Shown piece after piece: positions 49,673-60,022 of a stretch of 64,000 nt of DNA. Source of the stretch: an uncultured delta proteobacterium (GTDB taxonomy: Bacteria > Desulfobacterota > SM23-61). The notes under the pieces were generated by a model. It did not search any database, had not been told where the DNA came from, and saw nothing but the letters and a program-made list of their open reading frames with translations. The stretch spans positions 88,135 to 152,134 of the forward strand of contig CAVQIK010000012.1 of assembly GCA_963712535.1 (NCBI GenBank), in the 5' to 3' direction. The translations under genes and the position numbers were made by a program. The first letter of the stretch is position 1. Each line of letters starts with the position of its first letter.

Positions 49673-50294
49673 ATGAAAATCTTGCGAAGAATGTATCAGG
49701 CATTGATTGTCTTACTTCTTCTGGCGCTGCCAGTATCTGGCTGCCAAAAATCCGATGTCGGACCTGGAGGTGAAAGAATGAACAGCCCAAGTACGAATGT
49801 GGACCGGCGAGCCGGCCAAAGCCCGCAATTCGAAAGCCGGCGGGCCTACTCGAAGCCGGATGATGCCACCCTCCGAAAAGAACTCACTCCCGCTGCAGTA
49901 CGAGGTCACCCAGAAGGAAGGCACCGAGCCGCCGTTCAAAAACGAGTACTGGAACAATGAGAGGGAAGGCATTTATGTTGACATTGTCTCCGGAGAACCG
50001 TTGTTCAGTTCGAAGGACAAGTTCGATTCGGGCACGGGGTGGCCGAGTTTTGTAAGGCCTCTGAACCCGGAAAATATCGTGCAAAGGGAAGACCGCCGGC
50101 TGCTCTTCTTGAAGAGGGTTGAGGTCAGGAGCAAACACGGCGACTCCCATCTGGGCCATGTCTTTGACGACGGACCCCCTCCTACCGGTCTTCGGTACTG
50201 CATGAACTCGGCGGCCCTGAGGTTCATCCCCAAGGAGGACCTGGAAAAAGAAGGGTATGGGGAGTACCGGAAACTTTTTGCAGGCGACAAGTAA
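49673..50294 (+). pseudogene. msrB: peptide-methionine (R)-S-oxide reductase MsrB with lipoprotein signal peptide, one frameshift
   Basis: MKILRRMYQALIVLLLLALPVSGC (lipobox)...[11 protein letters not shown] in one frame, then [15 protein letters not shown]...GWPSF...[17 protein letters not shown]...RYCMNS in the next. Extra base in the CCC(G) run near 49889-49892. Confidence 0.85.
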
Positions 50295-50321
50295 GCCTGT
50301 GTTCGTGCACGGGGGGAGTTC

Positions 50322-50939
50322 ATGAAAAACCCGGTCCTGATCAGCCTTCTTTTCGGAGCGGCCTTTTCCATCGTGGCCATGCTGTCAAGAGAGGGCGTTG
50401 CCGCAAGTGGAGAAAAGCAGATGGAAAAGGCTACCTTCGCAGGAGGATGTTTCTGGTGCATGGAGCATCCCTTCGACCAGCTGGAGGGCGTGATTTCGGT
50501 CACTCCGGGATACACCGGCGGGCAGAAGAAAAATCCCACTTACGAGGAGGTCTCGGCGGGGGGGACCGGGCACGCGGAATCCGTCCAGATCGTTTACGAC
50601 CCCGAGAAGATCAGCTACGCCAAGCTGCTGGAGGTCTTCTGGCATAACATCGATCCGACGACCCCGGACAGGCAGTTCTGCGACGTCGGCAACCAGTACC
50701 GTTCAGCCATCTTTTACCACGACGATGCCCAGAAGCGGCTCGCGGAAGAATCCAAAAAAGCCCTGGAAGATTCCGGCCGGCTGAAGGGCAAGATCTTCAC
50801 CGAAATCGTCCCGGCCTCGGAATTCTACCCGGCTGAGGAGTATCACCAGCATTACTATCTGAAGAACCCGATCCGCTACAAATTTTACCGCTTCAACTGC
50901 GGCCGCGACCAGCGCCTGCGGGAACTCTGGGGCCAGTGA
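50322..50939 (+). CDS. msrA: peptide-methionine (S)-S-oxide reductase MsrA with N-terminal signal peptide
   Basis: GGCFWCMEHPF active-site motif, GYTGG, HAE..Q..YDP, YHQ.Y. Hydrophobic N-terminus (VLISLLFGAAFSIVAML). Confidence 0.9.
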   Translation: MKNPVLISLLFGAAFSIVAMLSREGVAASGEKQMEKATFAGGCFWCMEHPFDQLEGVISVTPGYTGGQKKNPTYEEVSAGGTGHAESVQIVYDPEKISYAKLLEVFWHNIDPTTPDRQFCDVGNQYRSAIFYHDDAQKRLAEESKKALEDSGRLKGKIFTEIVPASEFYPAEEYHQHYYLKNPIRYKFYRFNCGRDQRLRELWGQ

Positions 50940-52585: not shown

Positions 52586-53647
52586 CTAAGAACACCGCAC
52601 CGCCCTCTCATACGCCCGGATGAGCGCCTCCGCCTCCTCCGCGGGGGTGGGCCATTCCGCCGCCCGCTTCCGGCCCTCCTCACCCAAGGCCTCTCTGAAC
52701 GCCTCGTCCTCCACCAGCCGCAATGCCTTTTTCCTGAAATCTTCTGGGTCTTTCGGATCGAAGAGACAGGGGGAAGGGGGGTCCCCATTCTTTCCCAGGA
52801 CTGCCGTTCTGTTCCCCCGTATGTCGGACGCCAGCACCGGCCGGCCGGCGGCCATCCCCTCTAGAAGCGCGTTCGAGAGCCCCTCCGAGAACGATGCGTT
52901 CAATACTACATCCGAACCCCCGTAGGCGGCGCGCATGCAGGCCGGCGGAATGAGCTGGATCCAGCGGGCAAAATGGCCGGTCCGCCTGACGAGGCTTTCG
53001 AACCGGGCGAAGTAATCGGCGTCAAGGCTCGGCCCGGCGAACACGACCCGGATCTCAGGGCGAGCCGCATGCACTTCCTGAAGGTATTCTAGACACTCCA
53101 GGTTCCCCTTAACCGGCCGGATCCCAGCGGGAAGGAAGAAGAGGAATTCCTCAGCCCCCCACCCCAAAGTCCGCCGGATGTCAAACGCGTCCCGGCCTAG
53201 CCAGCAAATCGATTTGGGGATTGCGACGGTCCGGTCGCCGAATCCTGGAGCAGCTTCGGCCAATCTTTCCGCGATCCCCTGCCCTTGCGCGATGATGAGC
53301 CGGGCCAAGCGGAAAACGCCGAGGATCGTTTCCTTGTTTTTACCGGATCGGAGGTCCCCGTTTATATCCGTTCCCGCGGGAGAAACCACAAGCGGGATAC
53401 GGCCGCATTCCTGCGCCAACCTGGCATCCAAAAACAGAAACCCTGCCCGGAGCGCGTGATGGACATGAATCAAGTCCGGTTGAAAGCGGGCGATTTCTCT
53501 CACAACCTCCCCCACGCTCAGCCTCTGGGTGGGAAGCACCTGCACCGCGCATCCCTTCTCCGACAGCGAGCGGCGCCATCGCTCCGCGGTAATCGCGTTT
53601 CCCGTAACCGATGGGAGGGCCGCGGGGGTTAGGATGGAGATGCGCAT
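52586..53647 (-). CDS. GT4-family (GT-B fold) glycosyltransferase
   Basis: MRISILTP start. C-terminal EGLSNALLEGMAAGRPVLASDIRGN (E-x7-E region). 353 aa. Confidence 0.85.
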   Translation of the reverse strand: MRISILTPAALPSVTGNAITAERWRRSLSEKGCAVQVLPTQRLSVGEVVREIARFQPDLIHVHHALRAGFLFLDARLAQECGRIPLVVSPAGTDINGDLRSGKNKETILGVFRLARLIIAQGQGIAERLAEAAPGFGDRTVAIPKSICWLGRDAFDIRRTLGWGAEEFLFFLPAGIRPVKGNLECLEYLQEVHAARPEIRVVFAGPSLDADYFARFESLVRRTGHFARWIQLIPPACMRAAYGGSDVVLNASFSEGLSNALLEGMAAGRPVLASDIRGNRTAVLGKNGDPPSPCLFDPKDPEDFRKKALRLVEDEAFREALGEEGRKRAAEWPTPAEEAEALIRAYERAVRCS

Positions 53648-54510
53648 TGGGTAAACTCCGCAAACGGAAATGGCGTGAGATGGATTTCTTCTTCCATGAG
53701 ACCCGCGCGGAATCCCGGATCGAGGAGAGCCTTCAGCTCCAGCTCCCTTTCGCGCGTCGAAAAAGCGGAGAAGGGACCCCGGGGAGACCTCGGGGAGATC
53801 CGGCCTGGATGGACCATCAACTCCGTGATGCCGGGGGCAAGAGACGCCAGGGTCTCGCGTAACAGGGCCAAAGAGGAGTTTCCTTTCAGATACAGACCCC
53901 GGAAGTGATCCGGCGCCCGGACTCCCGTTCGTTTCAAGAAGGGACGGGCAGCCCCCCCGAGGCTGCTGAACAATCGAGCCTCCTCACGCAGGTCCCCGGA
54001 AACCGGGGCCGAAACGGGCGTGGAGCCCTCTTCGGGGATTCGCATCCAGGGAATTTTATTCTCCCGGGCCGCCGCAACGGCTGCGCAAACAACAGCCGGG
54101 AAAACGTGGACGTGCTGGTGGCTATCCAGGTGGCGGATCGGAATCCCCCATTCGCGGACTGCACCCATCTGCGCCCTCAACTCCCTTGTGATCTCGTTTT
54201 CCAGGGCCGAATCATCCCGCCGCATCAGGAGTTCGTGGGCCCGCCGCTTTCCCAGGAAAAGGCCGTCCGGCCCGGAGAGCAGCCGCAACCCGGGGCAAAT
54301 CGGCTTCCCCTCGGACAGGTTGACGTGAAGGCCGAAAGAGACGTCCGCGGACCCAAGGGACTTGATATTCTCAAGGGCATGCTCCAACGCCGACCCGTTG
54401 GGGAGGATGCTGGCGCTGGTCACCGCCCCGGAGAGGATGGCCTCGAAGATGCCCGCGTTCCGGCCCTCATCGGCCCCTAGATCGTCGGCGTTCACAATCA
54501 GCTGTTTCAT
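53629..54510 (-). CDS. YdjC/ChbG/HpnK-family carbohydrate deacetylase
   Basis: MKQLIVNADDLG start, HLDSHQHVH motif. 293 aa. Overlaps the GT4 start by 19 nt. Confidence 0.85.
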   Translation of the reverse strand: MKQLIVNADDLGADEGRNAGIFEAILSGAVTSASILPNGSALEHALENIKSLGSADVSFGLHVNLSEGKPICPGLRLLSGPDGLFLGKRRAHELLMRRDDSALENEITRELRAQMGAVREWGIPIRHLDSHQHVHVFPAVVCAAVAAARENKIPWMRIPEEGSTPVSAPVSGDLREEARLFSSLGGAARPFLKRTGVRAPDHFRGLYLKGNSSLALLRETLASLAPGITELMVHPGRISPRSPRGPFSAFSTRERELELKALLDPGFRAGLMEEEIHLTPFPFAEFTQCASPS

Positions 54511-56186
54511 TCTCTCCTGGGTCCTGACGCGCGAAAGAAGAGGTTCCGAAACACGTATTGTCCTTTCCCCGCCTCCCGGAATTCGGACCTCCCGGAACTC
54601 CGAAGCGAGAGAAAATAGTCGAAAAGCCCCTTCTCCATTTCTTCGTATTCTTCCGCCGTGAACCGCCGTTCTGTCTCTTGGACCAGGGTCACCGCGGAAA
54701 ATGCTTTTTCGAGGTGCCTCCGCAGGCGCAAGGAGTCAGCCAGCGAAATTGCCAGAACCCACAGCCTTCCCCCGACCGGCTCGAGGAAATCCCTGGCCCC
54801 GTCGACGACGGCCAGTAAATGCCTGGTCCCATCTGCCCCGCCATAGCGGGGGCCGAACGGCCTGGGGCCGGGGGTCTGCGGGGGTGTCGCAAGGATTAAG
54901 CCAAACCGCTCCCTTCGCCCGGAGCAAGCGGCGGACCCCACCGCTTCATACCAGGACCCGGCCCGGATTTCGATCCTGTCCTCGAGGCCATTGATCCGGG
55001 CATTGAACGCTGTTGCCTCCAATGCCCGTGGGTCCAGGTCCGTGGCCACGACACGCCCCGCGCCGAGCTTTGCCGCGGCGATGGATAAGAGACCGGTGCC
55101 GCACCCCAGCTCCAGCACGTTTTCCCCGGGTTTCACGTCCAGGAGCTTGGCGAGATCGATGCTCGATTGCGGCGGGTGATGCACCCCCGCGGGAACTTTC
55201 AGCTCGATCGGCCCACACGGGAGGTCGATTCGAATTCGGGGGCTCTCCTTTTGAGCCGGCTCTCCGTACCGTCCCAGGCCCGCGGACAGCATGCGCTCCA
55301 CGAGGCCGGGGTAGTCGAGCCCCGCCCATCGCGCCGAGAGGGCCAGGGCTTCCTCCGGCTCGAGACTCGGCGTCGTGTTCGCCTCGAAGAAGAAGAACGC
55401 GCCGCCCGGGGAAAGCTTCAGGTCGAATCGGGCATAGTCTCTCAACCCGAGGGCTTCAAAGGCCGTCACCGCCAGCTCCTCGATTTCCTCCCTGAGGGCC
55501 GGAGACAACTCCGCACGGAATGCGTCGCCCCTCCCGCGTGCCACGGGGGTCAGTTTGAAGGATTCGGTGAGTATGCCCGCCCCGCCCGGGTCAACGCGCC
55601 ACTCCAGCACGGGAAGGACCTCCGGGCCCTTCGGGCCCGCGAGGAGAGAGACGGCCAGTTCCCTTCCGGGAATATACGCCTCTACCAGCAACGGTTGCCG
55701 CAGCTTGGTCAAAAGGTCCGCTGCGGTCGAATACGCCTCCTCGTCCGTCCCGGCCAGCGCGAGCCCCCGGCTCATGTGCTCGAAGATCGGCTTCAGAACG
55801 AAAGGGGGCTTCAGCCAGCGGGGAATCTTCCAGTGAGCGGAGTCGGCCACGATGCCGGGGGGAACGTTTATCCCCGAAGCAGCCATCCGCTCTTTGGCGG
55901 CGGCTTTGTCATCCGCGAGAAAGCAGGCCCGGGCATCCGACCCCACCACCTTTGCCCCCCGGGATTCCAGGATCCATCTTACCAGCGGCCGGAAAAACCC
56001 ACGCCCCCGGAAGGTGTCGGTGTGATCGATGACCAGGTCGCAATGGCTAGCGAGTTCCGATGCCCGAAGCTCGATCTCCTCCGAGTCGGCGAGGAGCGGC
56101 TCGTGACCAAGAGCCTCCAGGCCTTTCGAGACCGACTCGGCGCAGCGGCAGGGAGAGCCGACTGTTCGAACGACACCTACACGCAT
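54507..56186 (-). CDS. fusion protein: ATP-grasp ligase (Ddl/RimK-like) N-domain plus class I SAM methyltransferase (HemK/PrmC-like) C-domain
   Basis: The N-half resembles D-Ala-D-Ala-ligase-type ATP-grasp (MRVGVV.., PFVLKP, LLVEAYIPGRELAVS, FFFEANTTP). The C-half has VLELGCGTGLLSIAAAKLGA..VVATDLD and LILATPPQTP. Its stop overlaps the YdjC start by 4 nt. Start is ATG 56186 or GTG 56210. Confidence 0.7.
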   Translation of the reverse strand: MRVGVVRTVGSPCRCAESVSKGLEALGHEPLLADSEEIELRASELASHCDLVIDHTDTFRGRGFFRPLVRWILESRGAKVVGSDARACFLADDKAAAKERMAASGINVPPGIVADSAHWKIPRWLKPPFVLKPIFEHMSRGLALAGTDEEAYSTAADLLTKLRQPLLVEAYIPGRELAVSLLAGPKGPEVLPVLEWRVDPGGAGILTESFKLTPVARGRGDAFRAELSPALREEIEELAVTAFEALGLRDYARFDLKLSPGGAFFFFEANTTPSLEPEEALALSARWAGLDYPGLVERMLSAGLGRYGEPAQKESPRIRIDLPCGPIELKVPAGVHHPPQSSIDLAKLLDVKPGENVLELGCGTGLLSIAAAKLGAGRVVATDLDPRALEATAFNARINGLEDRIEIRAGSWYEAVGSAACSGRRERFGLILATPPQTPGPRPFGPRYGGADGTRHLLAVVDGARDFLEPVGGRLWVLAISLADSLRLRRHLEKAFSAVTLVQETERRFTAEEYEEMEKGLFDYFLSLRSSGRSEFREAGKGQYVFRNLFFRASGPRRE

Positions 56187-56350
56187 GAGATATATCCTGA
56201 AGGATCGCACAACCCGTATTGAGTTTCCATTAGCCTATCCAGGGAATCCCCCCATCGTCAAGGCGAAAATCCACCTTTGATAGTGTCTGCAGAAATCGCT
56301 CGGCAGAATTCGGAGCTTGAATCGTCCCCGATGATCTTCACTGGCGGCCA

Positions 56351-56420
56351 CCATTCACCCTGAGCTTATGTCGAAGGGTGCATCTGCGCGCCGTTCATGG
56401 TTCGACATACTCGGCACGAA
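56351..56420. repeat. short palindromic repeat unit of the widespread HPELVEG / VRQAHHE type
   Basis: TTCACCCTGAGCTTATGTCGAAGGGTG hairpin followed by GTTCATGGTTCGACATACTCGGCACGAA. Recognised from memory as a common intergenic element in many bacterial genomes. Single copy here. Confidence 0.45.
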
Positions 56421-56769
56421 TTCTTAGTCTCCAGCGTCCACACAATTCCGGACTGATTAGAAAATGAAAAAAATTGTCATGCGCGAAACCTTAAGTTTCA
56501 TGGAGCGGGGTCTGCCATTTGACGTAATATTCCAATCCAGTATTAAACGTCTCTTCTAATTCCCATTTAACCGGATTGCAGAGAAATGAACTTTTATGCA
56601 GGTTCTTTCCATTTCATCTCTAATTGCGGCGGGGCCAAAATCGGTCGGTCGCAAAATACACTGTCTCACAATGTTAAATACATTCTCTCCCGTATTGGGA
56701 ACTCAGGTTGTCTTCCCTAGGATAGATTCTGAGTTTCCTTTCTTAAATCCAATTCAGGGAAGATTCGCA

Positions 56770-58195
56770 ATGAGAAAGAGAAAATCCTCGGCCGACCTCC
56801 TTCCATCCCTGCTCGCCTCTCTCTCAATCCTCGCCGTCCTTTCGGCGTGCGGAGGCGGAGGCGGCGACGGGTCCCAGTCGGTCCCGCCGCCTCCTGCGAC
56901 GGGAACCGTGAGCGTTACCCTCTCTGACCCGCCCGTCTGCCTCGCACCGAATGGTCCATTCCAAAATGTTTGGGTGACTCTCACCCGAGTGCGGGCCCAC
57001 GCATCCGGCACGGCGGGCCCGAACGACAGCGGCTGGGTGGACCTGGTGGATCTTCGCAGCAACCCCGCCCAGATCGATCTGCTAAGCCTTCAGTCCCCGG
57101 CCTGCATCCTGTCCCAGCTCGGCTCGAGGAGCGGGATCCCACCCGGGTCAATACCAGCAGATCCGTCTGCACCTGCTGAGCAACTCTCCGGATACGACCG
57201 TCGCAGTTCCCGCCGCCAACCTGTGCAGCGGGAGCGGGTTTAATTGCGTGATTTTGGCCAGTGGGGGAATTCAAACCTTGCTCTTGACCAGCGAAGCAGA
57301 GTCGGGGATCAAGATCCCCTCCGGGCAGATCTCCGGGGGAGCTTTCACGGTAGCGGCCGGCCAGACCACGTTTCTCAATATCGATTTCGATGCCTGTTCA
57401 TCTCTAATCCAGCAGGGGAACGGGCAATTCCGCCTGAAGCCGGTGCTCCACGCGGGGGCGATCTCCCTGAACAGCAATTTCATCAGCGGGGCGGTGGTAG
57501 ACAGCTCGACCCGGGGCCCTGTCCAGAACGCGACTGTATTCATCGAGCAGAGGGACCCGAATAACCCCAGTCTGGACCGCGTCATCGCCCGGACTACGAC
57601 GGGTCCGGCCGGCGAGTTCATCGCTTGTCCCCTGCCGCCCGGGAATTACGACGTGGTTGTTTCCGGCAGGACCTTTCTCTATACCTTCAATCCTACGGCA
57701 ACCCTTCAGGTGCCCGTTGGAACGCTTATGGGAAACATTCCCCTGATGCCGCAGGCCGGAGAACTCCCTGCCACCGTCTCGGGAGAAATCGTCACGACCA
57801 ATGCCGCAGGAGCGGCGACGACCGCCGACCTCGAGATTTCAGCGCTGCAGCCCGCCGATTCTTTGCTGGTCACCATCCCGCCGCTGGGGAATTCTATATC
57901 CCAGGTGACTTCGGAAGGCGGCAGGGCAACCTATACTCTGGTTTTGCCGGCAGCGAATCCACTGGTCGGAATTTTCAGCGCAACGCCCGCGACCGTCTAT
58001 TCGCCCGCCGTTGCGGGTCCGGGGGTTTACCAGCTGAATGTCCAGGCTTTTAATCTCATGTCTTCCTCTTTAAACCCCGGCTCGCCGAACTGCAGCCCGC
58101 CCAGCCTCCCGGTCCCCTTTGACGCCGGAAACCAGCTATTCGTTACCCCCGGCGCAACCCTGACCAGGGATTTTACATTTACCGGCTGCCAGTAA
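56770..58195 (+). pseudogene. DUF4382-family lipoprotein, one frameshift
   Basis: Lipobox (LSILAVLSAC). VSVTLSDPP...VWVTLTRVRAH...WVDL...PAQIDLLSL, then in the next frame GQYQQIRLHLLSN...SGIKIPSG...LNIDFDACSS...FRLKPV, matching the DUF4382 pattern. Extra G in the GGG run at about 57145-57147. Confidence 0.7.
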
Positions 58196-58503: not shown

Positions 58504-60022
58504 CTACCCGCGGTCGAGCTTCCTCAATTCTTTTTTCAACACCTTCCCCACGAGGCTCTTGGGCAGAGCCTTCATGAAGGCCACCTCGGCGGGCAGCAGA
58601 AACGGGGTGAGCCGGGTCCGGCAGTAATCGATGATCTCCGCCTCCGTAGGCGTTCTCGCCGGGCTTTCAGGACGACGAATGCCTTGATGTTCTCCCCGTA
58701 CACTTCGTCCTTGATCCCGATCACCGCCGCCTCGGATACTTTGGGGTGCTTGAAGAGGACTTCCTCGATGGTCCGGGGTGAGATGTTCTCCCCTGCCTTG
58801 ATGATCAGATCCTTCTTGCGGTCCGTGATCCAGAAGTAGCCGTCCTCATCGACGTAGCCGATGTCGCCGGTGTGGAGCCATCCGCCCCTGATCGCCTTCG
58901 GCGGTCTCCTCCGGCTTGTTCCAGTACCCTTTCATGAGCATGGGCCCGCGGATCACGATCTCACCCTCTTTGCGGATGGGAAGGGGGTTCCCCTCGTTGT
59001 CCACGATCCTCATCTCCGTCCCTTTCATCGGCAGGCCGATGGACCCGACCTTCTTCACCCCGTCCGGCGGGTTGACCGAATTGTTCGCCCCCGCCTCGGT
59101 GAGGCCCCATCCCTCGATGATCTCGAACCCGAAAGTCTCCTTGAACCGGTTGAACGTTTCCAGCGCCAGGGGCGCGGAGCCGCAGAACCAGTACTTCATC
59201 GAGCTCAGGTCGAATTTTTTCGGGTCGGGGAAAAGGAGCATGAAGACGTACATGGTCGGGAACTCCGGCCAGTACGTCGGCCCGGTACTTCTGGATCGCG
59301 GTGAAGATGCCCTTCCACGTTGAAGGAACTGAGCAGAACGGCCCCTCCGGTCCGGCGGAAGAGCCCCTGGTTCATGCTCGCGATGCCGTAGGAATGGCAG
59401 AGAGGGAGGACAAAGATCGAAACCAGGCCGTCCGGAAGGGGGACTGAGTCGTACTGCATCCGGGCGTTCGAGTACAGGCTGAGATGGGTGTGCATCACCC
59501 CTTTGGGGCGGCCGGTCGTCCCGGCGGTGTAGATCAGCGCGGCTAGATCGTCGTCGGCCGTATCCTCCACTTCTGTCTCCTCCGGACTTTCGCCGACGAT
59601 CTTCGGATACGAGAGGAACCCGCGCGGAGCGTCGGCATCCGTGAGAATCACGGTTTCCAGGCTGGGAGACTTCGCCAGCCCGGGAGGATTTTGGGGAGAA
59701 AGGCCGAGTTGCTGATGAGCACCTTCGCGCCCGAATCCTGGTAGATGTAGGCTGTCTCCTCCTCCCCGACGAGGTAGTTGATCGGCACGACCACGCCCCC
59801 GAGCCTCCAGACGGCCGAGAACCCCTGGAGCACCTCGGGACAGTTGGGGATCTGGAGGATGACCCGGTCGCCCCGCTTGACCCCCAGGTCCTTGAGGGTC
59901 CTGGCCAGCCTGCGGCTTGCGCTCAGCATCTCAACGTTGGTGAACTCCTTCCCCTCATAAATCAGGCTGACCTGCTCCCCCTGCTGTCTCACCCTCTCTT
60001 CGGCGATCCCGGCGATATTCAT
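58504..60022 (-). pseudogene. AMP-dependent acyl-CoA synthetase/ligase, heavily frameshifted
   Basis: All family motifs are present but spread over frames: IYTAGTTGRPKGVMHTH, GWGLTE, GGWLHTGDIGYVDEDGYFWITDRKKDLIIKAGENISP, LPKSLVGKVLKKEL. Frame changes near 59678-59684, 59308-59314, 59255-59262, 58893-58900 and 58645-58668 (probably two there). Confidence 0.9.

Follow-up and report, generated by a model that had tools for sequence, protein, structure and literature searches.

What do three overlapping genes of an uncultured delta proteobacterium make together? The genes lie on the minus strand of a 64,000-nucleotide stretch of contig CAVQIK010000012.1 (the whole of which is called the window here), and they encode a family 4 glycosyltransferase (GT4), a YdjC-family deacetylase, and a fusion of an ATP-grasp ligase with an S-adenosylmethionine (SAM)-dependent methyltransferase. 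A first-pass annotation had proposed that these enzymes act by glycosyl transfer, N-deacetylation, ligation, and methylation. The computational analysis reported here suggests a cassette for tailoring a small molecule derived from N-acetylglucosamine (GlcNAc), a reading to which we assign a probability of roughly 0.8. In its favored form the molecule would carry selenium, and a selenium dependence of the window's own cassette is possible at somewhat below even odds. The genes and domains in question are the following.

52586..53647, minus strand: gene for a short soluble GT4 glycosyltransferase of the SenB/GPMC-like superfamily (P0003, 353 aa)
53629..54510, minus strand: gene for a YdjC-family sugar N-deacetylase (P0002, 293 aa)
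54507..56210, minus strand: gene for the ATP-grasp::SAM-methyltransferase fusion (P0001, open reading frame (ORF) of 567 aa from the GTG at 56210)
55251..56186, minus strand: Ddl-fold ATP-grasp ligase domain of P0001 (aa 9-320)
54510..55208, minus strand: class I SAM methyltransferase domain of P0001, PrmA/MTS/HemK-like (aa 335-567)

The junction between the fusion gene and the deacetylase gene, AGGAGAGAATGA, is a 4-nt stop/start overlap (ATGA) with a Shine-Dalgarno-like AGGAG just before it, inside the upstream gene, and the deacetylase and glycosyltransferase genes overlap by 19 nt. Both overlaps had been given exactly in the first-pass annotation, and they support its proposal that the three genes are translationally coupled. 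The true start of P0001 is probably the ATG at 56186, which would give a protein of 559 aa as in the homologues, since these begin at the residue aligned with M9. The G+C content of the operon is 63.6%, compared with 57.4% for the window.

Since the assembly containing the window has frame-broken genes close by (58846-60022 and 56596-58195), an independent short-read contig was of particular value for judging the fusion. This contig of 1977 nt from a bog metagenome covered 53798-55774 with 19 substitutions and no gaps, running across the domain junction as well as the gene junction. Independent ENA, JGI, NCBI, and Logan assemblies yielded more than 100 full-length proteins (550-560 aa) that carry both domains and are 59-70% identical to P0001; most of them bear the name 'D-alanine--D-alanine ligase' or '50S ribosomal protein L11 methyltransferase'. 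The homologues and the gapless contig rule out an assembly artefact of two separate genes, a concern raised at the first pass, and the fusion is genuine.

The glycosyltransferase P0003 matched the Pfam families Glycos_transf_1 and Glyco_trans_1_4 at about 61 bits. Its best hidden Markov model (HMM) was NF038229 ('GPMC system family 4 glycosyltransferase') with 285.7 bits against a cut-off of 400, and none of the other GT4 enzymes of the same genome scored above 77 bits on this model. The second HMM was SenB (TIGR04348) with 87.7 bits against a cut-off of 300, aligned over residues 3-345 of the protein and positions 1-307 of the 310 in the model; SenB is the nearest characterized family by full-length HMM. 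BshA (TIGR03999) and MshA (TIGR03449) gave 33.5 bits (cut-off 273.7) and 40.4 bits (cut-off 462.5). Judged by the cut-offs, P0003 is a member of neither the SenB nor the GPMC family, and neither the window nor any cassette locus contained the GPMC partners NF038230, NF038231, and TIGR04442. In a search with the family profile, the best solved relatives were BshA (2e-21), MshA (1e-15), and SenB (3e-15). The AlphaFold2 (AF2) model, with a predicted local distance difference test (pLDDT) value of 92.7, retrieved GlgM, MshA, SenB, and BshA in Foldseek, of which SenB had the highest template modelling (TM) score to the target (0.82) and the highest identity (21%). The acceptors of these four enzymes are glucose-1-phosphate for GlgM, inositol-1-phosphate for MshA, selenophosphate for SenB, and malate for BshA, all of them small and anionic. 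As the donor, MshA and BshA use uridine diphosphate (UDP)-GlcNAc, which SenB accepts along with other UDP-sugars.

The selenophosphate pocket of SenB is formed by N20, H58, R61, T83, T85, and R155, while K158 cleaves the Se-P bond, V157 touches the acetyl group, and N20, T23, and E231 touch the sugar (PMC10891094). The six pocket residues align with N17, H64, R67, A91, T93, and R177 of P0003, and K158, V157, T23, and E231 with K180, V179, T20, and E255; D94 was also listed among the pocket equivalents. Five of the six pocket residues and the lysine are kept, with T83 replaced by alanine, and GPMC-clade enzymes share this set of residues, including an enzyme from a genome that lacks selD. Across 59 family members, conservation was complete for R177, K180, and V179 (100% each) and about 100% for E255, followed by N17 and T93 (98% each), H64 and T20 (85% each), R67 (63%), and A91 (42%). 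H235 of SenB, which contacts only the 4-OH of the sugar, corresponds to N259. When K158 of SenB is changed to alanine, the mutant enzyme is reported to accumulate the selenophospho-sugar. A maximum-likelihood tree of the GT4 enzymes contained five clades, each well supported: the window type in Desulfobacterota, the window type in Planctomycetota, the type of genome G023, the GPMC type, and a sister type described below.

The deacetylase P0002 scored 190.6 bits with YdjC (PF04794), compared with a gathering score of 29.7, and its NADDLG, GLHVNL, and LDSHQHVH motifs align with those of the chitooligosaccharide deacetylase 7vi8. By this score and by its aligned DD/H/HxH motifs, P0002 can be placed in the YdjC family. 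Orthology to HpnK (TIGR03473; 122.4 bits versus 232.6) and to ChbG (114 bits versus a cut-off of 227) was rejected, and there were no hpn genes in the window or the related loci.

The N-terminal part of P0001 matched Dala_Dala_lig_C in Pfam with 63.6 bits (aa 128-308). The AF2 model of P0001 had a mean pLDDT of 84.6, and its best Foldseek matches were D-alanine--D-alanine ligases (Ddl; E 7e-24, TM 0.86 normalised to the target). When the residues were mapped by alignment to E. coli DdlB, the sequence of which was checked against PDB 1iov, K102, K140, E177, E184, and K219 aligned with K97, K144, E180, E187, and K215, and R261, D263, E276, and N278 aligned with R255, D257, E270, and N272. The residues for binding ATP and Mg and for phosphoryl transfer are all kept and were invariant in 40 homologues. 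Judged from the model and the alignment, the domain belongs by fold and by its ATP and Mg ligands to the ATP-grasp superfamily.

The substrate side of the domain has changed. The loop that carries E15 in DdlB is 5 aa shorter in P0001 and reads S-P-C-x-C, with C21 and C23 invariant, and both cysteines are kept even in standalone ATP-grasp homologues of 37% identity. S150 is replaced by M and Y216 by L, the S281/L282 region differs, and an invariant H145 together with a conserved DHTDT motif (H63, kept in most members) occupies the position of the first-substrate pocket of Ddl. As far as the alignment can suggest, C21, C23, H63, and H145 may form a metal site; selenocysteine (TGA) variants of the C-x-C motif were not found in any cassette locus. 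Orthology to Ddl was rejected, with 93 bits against a cut-off of 243 and the E15/S150/Y216 substrate triad absent. Since the ATP and Mg residues are kept and the substrate residues are lost, the domain is predicted to be an active carboxylate-amine ligase (or carboxylate-thiol or -selenol ligase) other than Ddl, in line with the first-pass proposal.

The methyltransferase part of P0001 (aa 335-515) scored 59.9 bits with PrmA and 45.3 bits with MTS in Pfam, and the Pfam and HMM scores together bear out all four domain assignments (GT4, YdjC, ATP-grasp, and methyltransferase) made at the first pass. Motif I reads LGCGTG, and motif IV reads A-T-P-P-Q-T-P instead of NPPY, with P-Q alone invariant (LPQ in the methyltransferases of Planctomycetota), followed by a conserved (R/K)(Y/W)GGxDGxxH loop that is poorly ordered in the AF2 model. 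The invariant residues are G47-C-G49, D69, P122-Q123, G135-G136, G139, and H142 in the numbering of alignment A3. The family profile matched PH1915, MJ0882, PrmA, HemK, PRMTs, METTL5, and aminoglycoside N-methyltransferases (GenN); these relatives are mostly N-directed, and all the matches were weak and mostly limited to the SAM-binding half. Orthology to PrmA or HemK was rejected (52.6 bits versus 183 for PrmA and 40.6 versus 199 for PrmC), and the (N/D)PP(Y/F) motif IV of HemK is not present.

Another reading is that a PrmA/HemK-like methyltransferase and a RimK/Ddl-like ligase modify a ribosomal or other protein, or RNA, with glycosylation as an added mark. The best named HMM matches of the methyltransferase are indeed ribosomal protein L11 and release-factor methyltransferases, and RimK-type ligases modify protein S6, but the matches lie far below the family cut-offs and mainly in the SAM-binding half, motif IV contains TPPQ rather than NPPY, and no candidate target gene is conserved nearby. 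We know of no role in protein modification for a YdjC sugar deacetylase together with a SenB/BshA-like GT4, and we regard this explanation as very improbable.

The three genes travel together. A scan of one genome per species yielded 78 loci, all from metagenome-assembled genomes (MAGs), labelled Syntrophaceae/Syntrophales, Syntrophorhabdus, Desulfarculaceae, Planctomycetota, and in some cases 'Acidobacteriota'. All-against-all clustering of the ORFs of 82 loci returned the three cassette genes as the only conserved genes; the other recurrent clusters were shadow ORFs or were common to at most 10 closely related loci, and no conserved accessory gene was found among them. The full order of ATP-grasp (with or without the fused methyltransferase), YdjC, and GT4 was present at 57 of the 65 loci having at least 2.1 kb of downstream sequence, and 4-nt overlaps dominated the two junctions (45/63 and 40/63). 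This arrangement is not due to chance. The orthologous operons were not embedded in any hopanoid, exopolysaccharide, O-antigen, peptidoglycan, or other cell-wall cluster, whereas a known pathway of this kind had been named at the first pass as an outcome that would refute its proposal. The fusion was found in 17 of the 301 genomes of a phylum sample (13 of 259 among the high-quality genomes) and in 4 of the 10 genomes of the window's own family, and the cassette is an accessory, patchy module.

The same activities also occur in other arrangements. One genome (G047) carries the ATP-grasp and the methyltransferase as separate genes followed by YdjC and GT4, and a Planctomycetota locus (L108) has all four activities as separate genes. 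A representative library at 50% identity contained methyltransferase::YdjC fusions (P0166, P0188), a GT4::methyltransferase fusion (P0227), and standalone ATP-grasps and methyltransferases, and a further GT4::methyltransferase fusion (P0359) was found. The nearest relatives of the methyltransferase among 1.8 billion proteins are those of such cassettes. Since the methyltransferase is fused in turn to each of the three other activities, the fusions provide Rosetta-stone evidence for one shared pathway. In a single genome (G299, L124:7667-9884), an internal deletion has reduced the fusion gene to residues 2-53 and 519-565, while the YdjC and GT4 genes directly after it are intact; this records the decay of the cassette in one lineage.

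Some loci count against a pathway in which the GT4 always takes part. The GT4 gene is not adjacent at several Planctomycetota loci, and at the two methyltransferase::YdjC loci (L125:6103-8536 and L126:3182-5606) the fusion comes after a standalone CxC-type ATP-grasp and has no GT4 next to it; the linkage of GT4 to the cassette is looser outside Desulfobacterota. Thioredoxin, molybdopterin oxidoreductase, and sulfur-transport genes adjoin the second of these two loci.

The other three activities can be inherited without GT4, which would suit an alternative in which YdjC, ATP-grasp, and methyltransferase produce an N-aminoacyl, N-methyl amino sugar from UDP-GlcNAc or from an existing glycan or lipid that contains GlcNAc, and GT4, where present, transfers it to an acceptor of the cell envelope. 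O-antigens and capsules often contain N-acylated amino sugars, and capsule synthesis is known to involve ATP-grasp amidoligases. We nevertheless consider envelope tailoring unlikely, because about 80 loci show no conserved neighbor encoding a flippase, polyprenyl-phosphate transferase, polymerase, transporter, or other glycan function, and because the enzymes most closely related to the GT4 all use acceptors that are small and soluble. The cassette proteins also had no obvious signal peptide or membrane segment when their translations and AF2 models were inspected by eye, with no dedicated predictor run.

In the pathway that we propose, the three genes would form one self-contained, translationally coupled cassette, the four activities of which, all with intact catalytic residues, would build a tailored 2-amino-2-deoxy-hexose small molecule in the cytoplasm. 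The GT4 would transfer a sugar from a UDP-N-acetylhexosamine onto a small anionic acceptor; UDP-GlcNAc is the probable donor because V157, the acetyl-contact residue of SenB, corresponds to the invariant V179 here. In the favored form of this step, selenophosphate from the SelD of the genome would attack the UDP-sugar as in SenB, yielding 1-seleno-GlcNAc. The YdjC enzyme would strip the N-acetyl group, and the ATP-grasp domain would activate a carboxylate as an acyl-phosphate and couple it to an amine, for which the liberated 2-amino group is the simplest candidate. The fused methyltransferase would then methylate, probably on nitrogen, or on selenium if a selenol is present, and with selenium the end product would be a methylated, N-acylated selenoglucosamine. 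We infer the donor, the acceptor, the order of the steps, the acyl group, and the methylation site, as well as the transfer of the selenium link from the sister cassette.

This scheme retains the first-pass logic of glycosyl transfer, deacetylation, ligation, and methylation, for which the GT4 supplies support in that its family profile and AF2 model match BshA, MshA, and SenB first. What the first pass did not foresee is that selenophosphate, in place of an alcohol or acid, may serve as the acceptor, given the SenB HMM match and the selD-linked sister cassettes. The chemical logic of the first pass is sound, but the order of its steps is tentative, and GT4 is not adjacent in some lineages.

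The selenium link comes from the sister cassette, which was reached through the GT4::methyltransferase fusion and consists of methyltransferase, YdjC, a RimK-like ATP-grasp, and GT4. It occurs in Riflebacteria, Verrucomicrobia, Anammoximicrobium, and unbinned contigs, and its proteins are 36% (methyltransferase, E 1e-31), 31% (YdjC, 2e-23), and 28% (GT4, 2e-24) identical to those of the window. There were 19 sister loci with downstream sequence after 19 JGI metagenome loci had been added, and at 8 of the 19 (L127, L129, L131-L133, L136, L137, and L147) selD, with or without yedF and a NifS-like gene, directly follows GT4 on the same strand. The linked genes belong to the families TIGR03527 (YedF), TIGR01977 (NifS-like), and TIGR00476 (SelD, 353-362 bits). 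In the Riflebacteria MAG GCA_015233155.1 (L129:3739-10044), GT4 overlaps yedF (192 bits) by 4 nt, and a NifS-like cysteine desulfurase of TIGR01977, with the selenocysteine lyase SclA as the second-best match, and SelD (353 bits) follow. The trio of yedF, NifS-like gene, and selD is also present at L127, there with a Se/S-carrier::SelD fusion. The cassette-adjacent selD is the only one in the Riflebacteria MAG, and selA and selU were searched for in this MAG and not found, so that by analogy with the discovery of the sen cluster it can be counted as an 'orphan' SelD.

Selenium-linked loci were interleaved with unlinked ones throughout the sister clade of the GT4 tree. The Verrucomicrobia MAG has no selenium genes adjoining the cassette and carries selD and selA elsewhere in the genome. 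YdjC, GT4, and SelD genes also lie in a row in a third GT4 clade (G023, L123:2956-5851). We judge it highly probable that the sister cassette is selenium-dependent, and, taken by itself, it has the look of a so far undescribed gene cluster for a selenium small molecule; a literature search for a selenium-linked four-enzyme cluster retrieved no paper describing one.

Several side observations were made at these loci. The SelD of G023 is of the selenocysteine (Sec) type with an in-frame TGA, and a NapC/NirT cytochrome gene follows it; two relatives (G086 and G133) keep the YdjC-GT4 pair and have selD on another contig. On an Anammoximicrobium-like contig (L130:7688-12310), DsrE, TusA, FlpD, and Hdr-like genes, not selenium genes, lie downstream of the sister cassette.

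A number of findings speak against extending this link to the window's cassette. No selD, yedF, or NifS-like gene was found within 6 kb at any of about 63 loci of the window's cassette type. The ATP-grasps of the two cassettes are barely alike, the sister enzyme being of the RimK-like subfamily without CxC, and their products may differ. In the GT4 tree the clades were unresolved in their deep order, and the branch leading to SenB was very long. The complete genome G027 has no selD but carries a GPMC-clade GT4 of this superfamily, which means that the pocket common to these enzymes is not diagnostic of selenium. The yedF/NifS-like/selD trio is also a hallmark of the maturation of selenium-dependent molybdenum hydroxylases, which is possible in the Riflebacteria MAG as well. 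Genomes with the cassette do carry selD, as seen in 47 of the 50 that the loci led to and, within the phylum sample, in every one of the 15 with a cassette (some genomes count in both sets), but selD was present in 275 of the 301 phylum genomes (91%) and in 113 of 151 Planctomycetota (75%). Since selD is near-universal in the phylum and common in Planctomycetota, its co-occurrence with the cassette carries no weight; that of yedF was discarded as uninformative as well (34 of 44 genomes, independent of the cassette). It is a plausible argument, though not evidence, that adjacent selD is missing because these Desulfobacterota keep a housekeeping Sec-containing SelD and need no dedicated copy.

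The main rival is a selenium-free pathway resembling those of bacillithiol and mycothiol, as proposed at the first pass. Here the acceptor to which the GT4 adds GlcNAc would be a phosphorylated alcohol or an organic acid (malate-, glycerate-, or inositol-phosphate-like), YdjC would deacetylate the resulting O-glycoside, the ATP-grasp would add an amino acid, possibly cysteine, to the glucosamine (GlcN) amine, and the methyltransferase would N-methylate as NmbA does. In the profile search BshA ranked as the best solved relative, ahead of MshA and SenB, and both MshA and BshA were among the top fold matches of the GT4. The mostly N-directed relatives of the methyltransferase, the absence of selenium genes near every locus of the window's cassette type, and the GPMC-clade relatives without selD point the same way, and the alignment suggests that C-x-C and H145 could form a thiol-selecting Zn site as in MshC or CysRS. 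However, the similarity to BshA and MshA lies mainly in the C-terminal donor domain, whereas the N-terminal acceptor domain with its GN..T..R motif matches SenB only. Further points against such an O-glycoside are that the homologous sister cassette is tied to selD, that no acceptor-making gene is conserved beside the cassette, and that the patchy distribution, which shows no complementarity with a GshB-like gene, is unlike that of a major redox buffer. This pathway is a possibility to be taken seriously, and we rate it as somewhat less probable than the selenium version.

The distribution also bears on two products suggested at the first pass. A thiol cofactor serving as the major thiol buffer of the cell is not supported, in view of the patchiness described above and the independence from the GshB-like gene, whose presence varies with the family and not with the cassette. 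It is common for close relatives to lack the cassette, and a complementary distribution of the cassette and glutathione synthetase was looked for and not seen. Metagenomes of soil, bog, sediment, and digester origin carry the cassette in hundreds of assemblies, and the search of sequencing runs gave bog, soil, wetland, and freshwater sediment as sources; the listed runs were DNA (metagenome) only, with no search aimed at RNA. These bog, soil, wetland, and freshwater-sediment sources do not suggest an osmolyte, which bears on the compatible-solute idea.

Returning to the selenium-containing product, we propose tentatively that the window's cassette and its sister together represent a new selenium-specific small-molecule pathway that is widespread in anaerobes (Syntrophales, Syntrophorhabdus, Desulfarculaceae, Planctomycetota, Riflebacteria, and Verrucomicrobia). 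In such a pathway, which would stand beside the selenoneine/ovoselenol module, the selenosugar would not pass its selenium on to a histidine derivative but would itself be retained and tailored. A novel selenol or methylselenide of low molecular weight would result, and it would be the microbial equivalent of selenosugars, methylated and in part deacetylated, that are known from the excretion of selenium by animals.

The surroundings of the cassette in the window are unrelated to it and lie on the opposite strand. On one side are genes for exported MsrB and MsrA, an HD protein, and an Smr protein, and on the other a DUF4382 lipoprotein gene. The region between the latter and the cassette is as follows.

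56211..56595, minus strand: upstream non-coding region, the presumed promoter and 5' leader, common to the cassette and the divergent DUF4382 gene

An Rfam search upstream of the operon found no riboswitch or leader RNA at gathering thresholds or at E<=1, a promoter scan upstream of the cassette found no sigma-70-like site on the minus strand, and the promoter and terminator scan around the cassette gave nothing informative. The MsrB (SelR) and MsrA pair (49797-50939, plus strand) lies near the 3' end of the cassette, and this pairing is not kept at other cassette loci. The divergent DUF4382/CarboxypepD_reg protein (56596-58195, plus strand) is encoded in two pieces, the ORFs 56596-57243 and 57248-58195, for which one frameshift is the probable cause. 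A gene for an AMP-binding protein resembling acyl-CoA synthetases (58846-60022, minus strand) is spread over at least three frames, either because it is a pseudogene or because the assembly has a cluster of indels there. The assembly comprises 5.95 Mb in 22 contigs and is 75.6% complete.

Literature searches combining YdjC with ATP-grasp, selenosugar with ATP-grasp, the 'GPMC system', and low-molecular-weight thiols of Deltaproteobacteria found no paper describing the cassette; together with the HMM scores below cut-off, this agrees with the first-pass view of the fusion as uncharacterized. The cassette was compared with the known systems enzyme by enzyme. The ligase domain shares with Ddl its fold (TM 0.86) and all residues for ATP, Mg, and phosphoryl transfer, and differs in having SPCxC in place of the E15 loop, in not conserving S150, Y216, S281, and L282, and in being fused to a methyltransferase. 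With HpnK and ChbG the deacetylase shares the YdjC family and intact DD/H/HxH motifs, but it scores below both cut-offs and has neither hopanoid nor chitobiose genes around it. The GPMC system of Geobacter/Pelobacter, which to our knowledge is itself uncharacterized, provides the best HMM of P0003, a GT4 of the same superfamily with common pocket residues. A true GPMC locus (G102, L121:2938-9599) consists of the sigma-54 regulator NF038230, TIGR04442, the PhnP-like metallo-β-lactamase (MBL) hydrolase NF038231, and a divergently transcribed GT4 (NF038229, 459 bits); it lacks YdjC, ATP-grasp, and methyltransferase, and its GT4 falls in a separate clade of the tree, to which that of P0003 is paralogous.

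Closer parallels are offered by the pathways of N-methyl-bacillithiol and mycothiol, in which the same four steps are available, namely GlcNAc transfer, N-deacetylation, ligation to the amine, and N-methylation, and from which BshA and MshA come as top profile and fold relatives of P0003. The cassette uses YdjC where these pathways use LmbE, a Ddl-fold ATP-grasp in place of a BshC or CysRS-like ligase, and a PrmA/MTS-like methyltransferase in place of NmbA, and its distribution is patchy, not lineage-wide. Membership in these pathways was rejected on the BshA and MshA scores, which are far below their cut-offs, and on the absence of LmbE, BshC, and MshC equivalents from the cassette. With the SenB/SenC selenosugar module the cassette shares a short GT-B/GT4 enzyme of about 320-350 aa with an N-terminal GN..T..R(W) motif, in which the equivalents of N20, T23, H58, R61, T85, R155, V157, K158, and E231 are kept, and its sister cassettes share an operon with selD, just as senB does with senC. 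It differs in the low identity of P0003 to SenB (21%, with the HMM score below cut-off), in having no adjacent selD in the window's cassette type, and in lacking an iron enzyme of the SenA/OvsA type, instead of which it has a deacetylase, an ATP-grasp ligase, and a methyltransferase.

The cassette is best described as an uncharacterized, compact, widely distributed four-enzyme variant of the small-molecule amino-sugar pathways of the SenB or BshA type, and a new class of selenometabolite is a realistic prospect. According to the ovoselenol preprint (10.1101/2024.04.10.588772), known selenium-specific small-molecule biosynthesis is confined to the selenosugar module and its derivatives selenoneine and ovoselenol, and more selenometabolites are to be expected as members of a larger family still to be discovered. 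The cassette is a concrete candidate for such a member, with four soluble enzyme activities, no extra partners, and a selD-linked sister version. Should the selenium reading fail, it would represent a convergent route to bacillithiol/mycothiol-type chemistry in which three of the four enzymes are non-homologous to those of the known pathways. A Ddl-fold ligase with an invariant C-x-C substrate loop appears unprecedented, and either outcome would give a function to genes now named for D-alanine--D-alanine ligase or for the methyltransferase of ribosomal protein L11.

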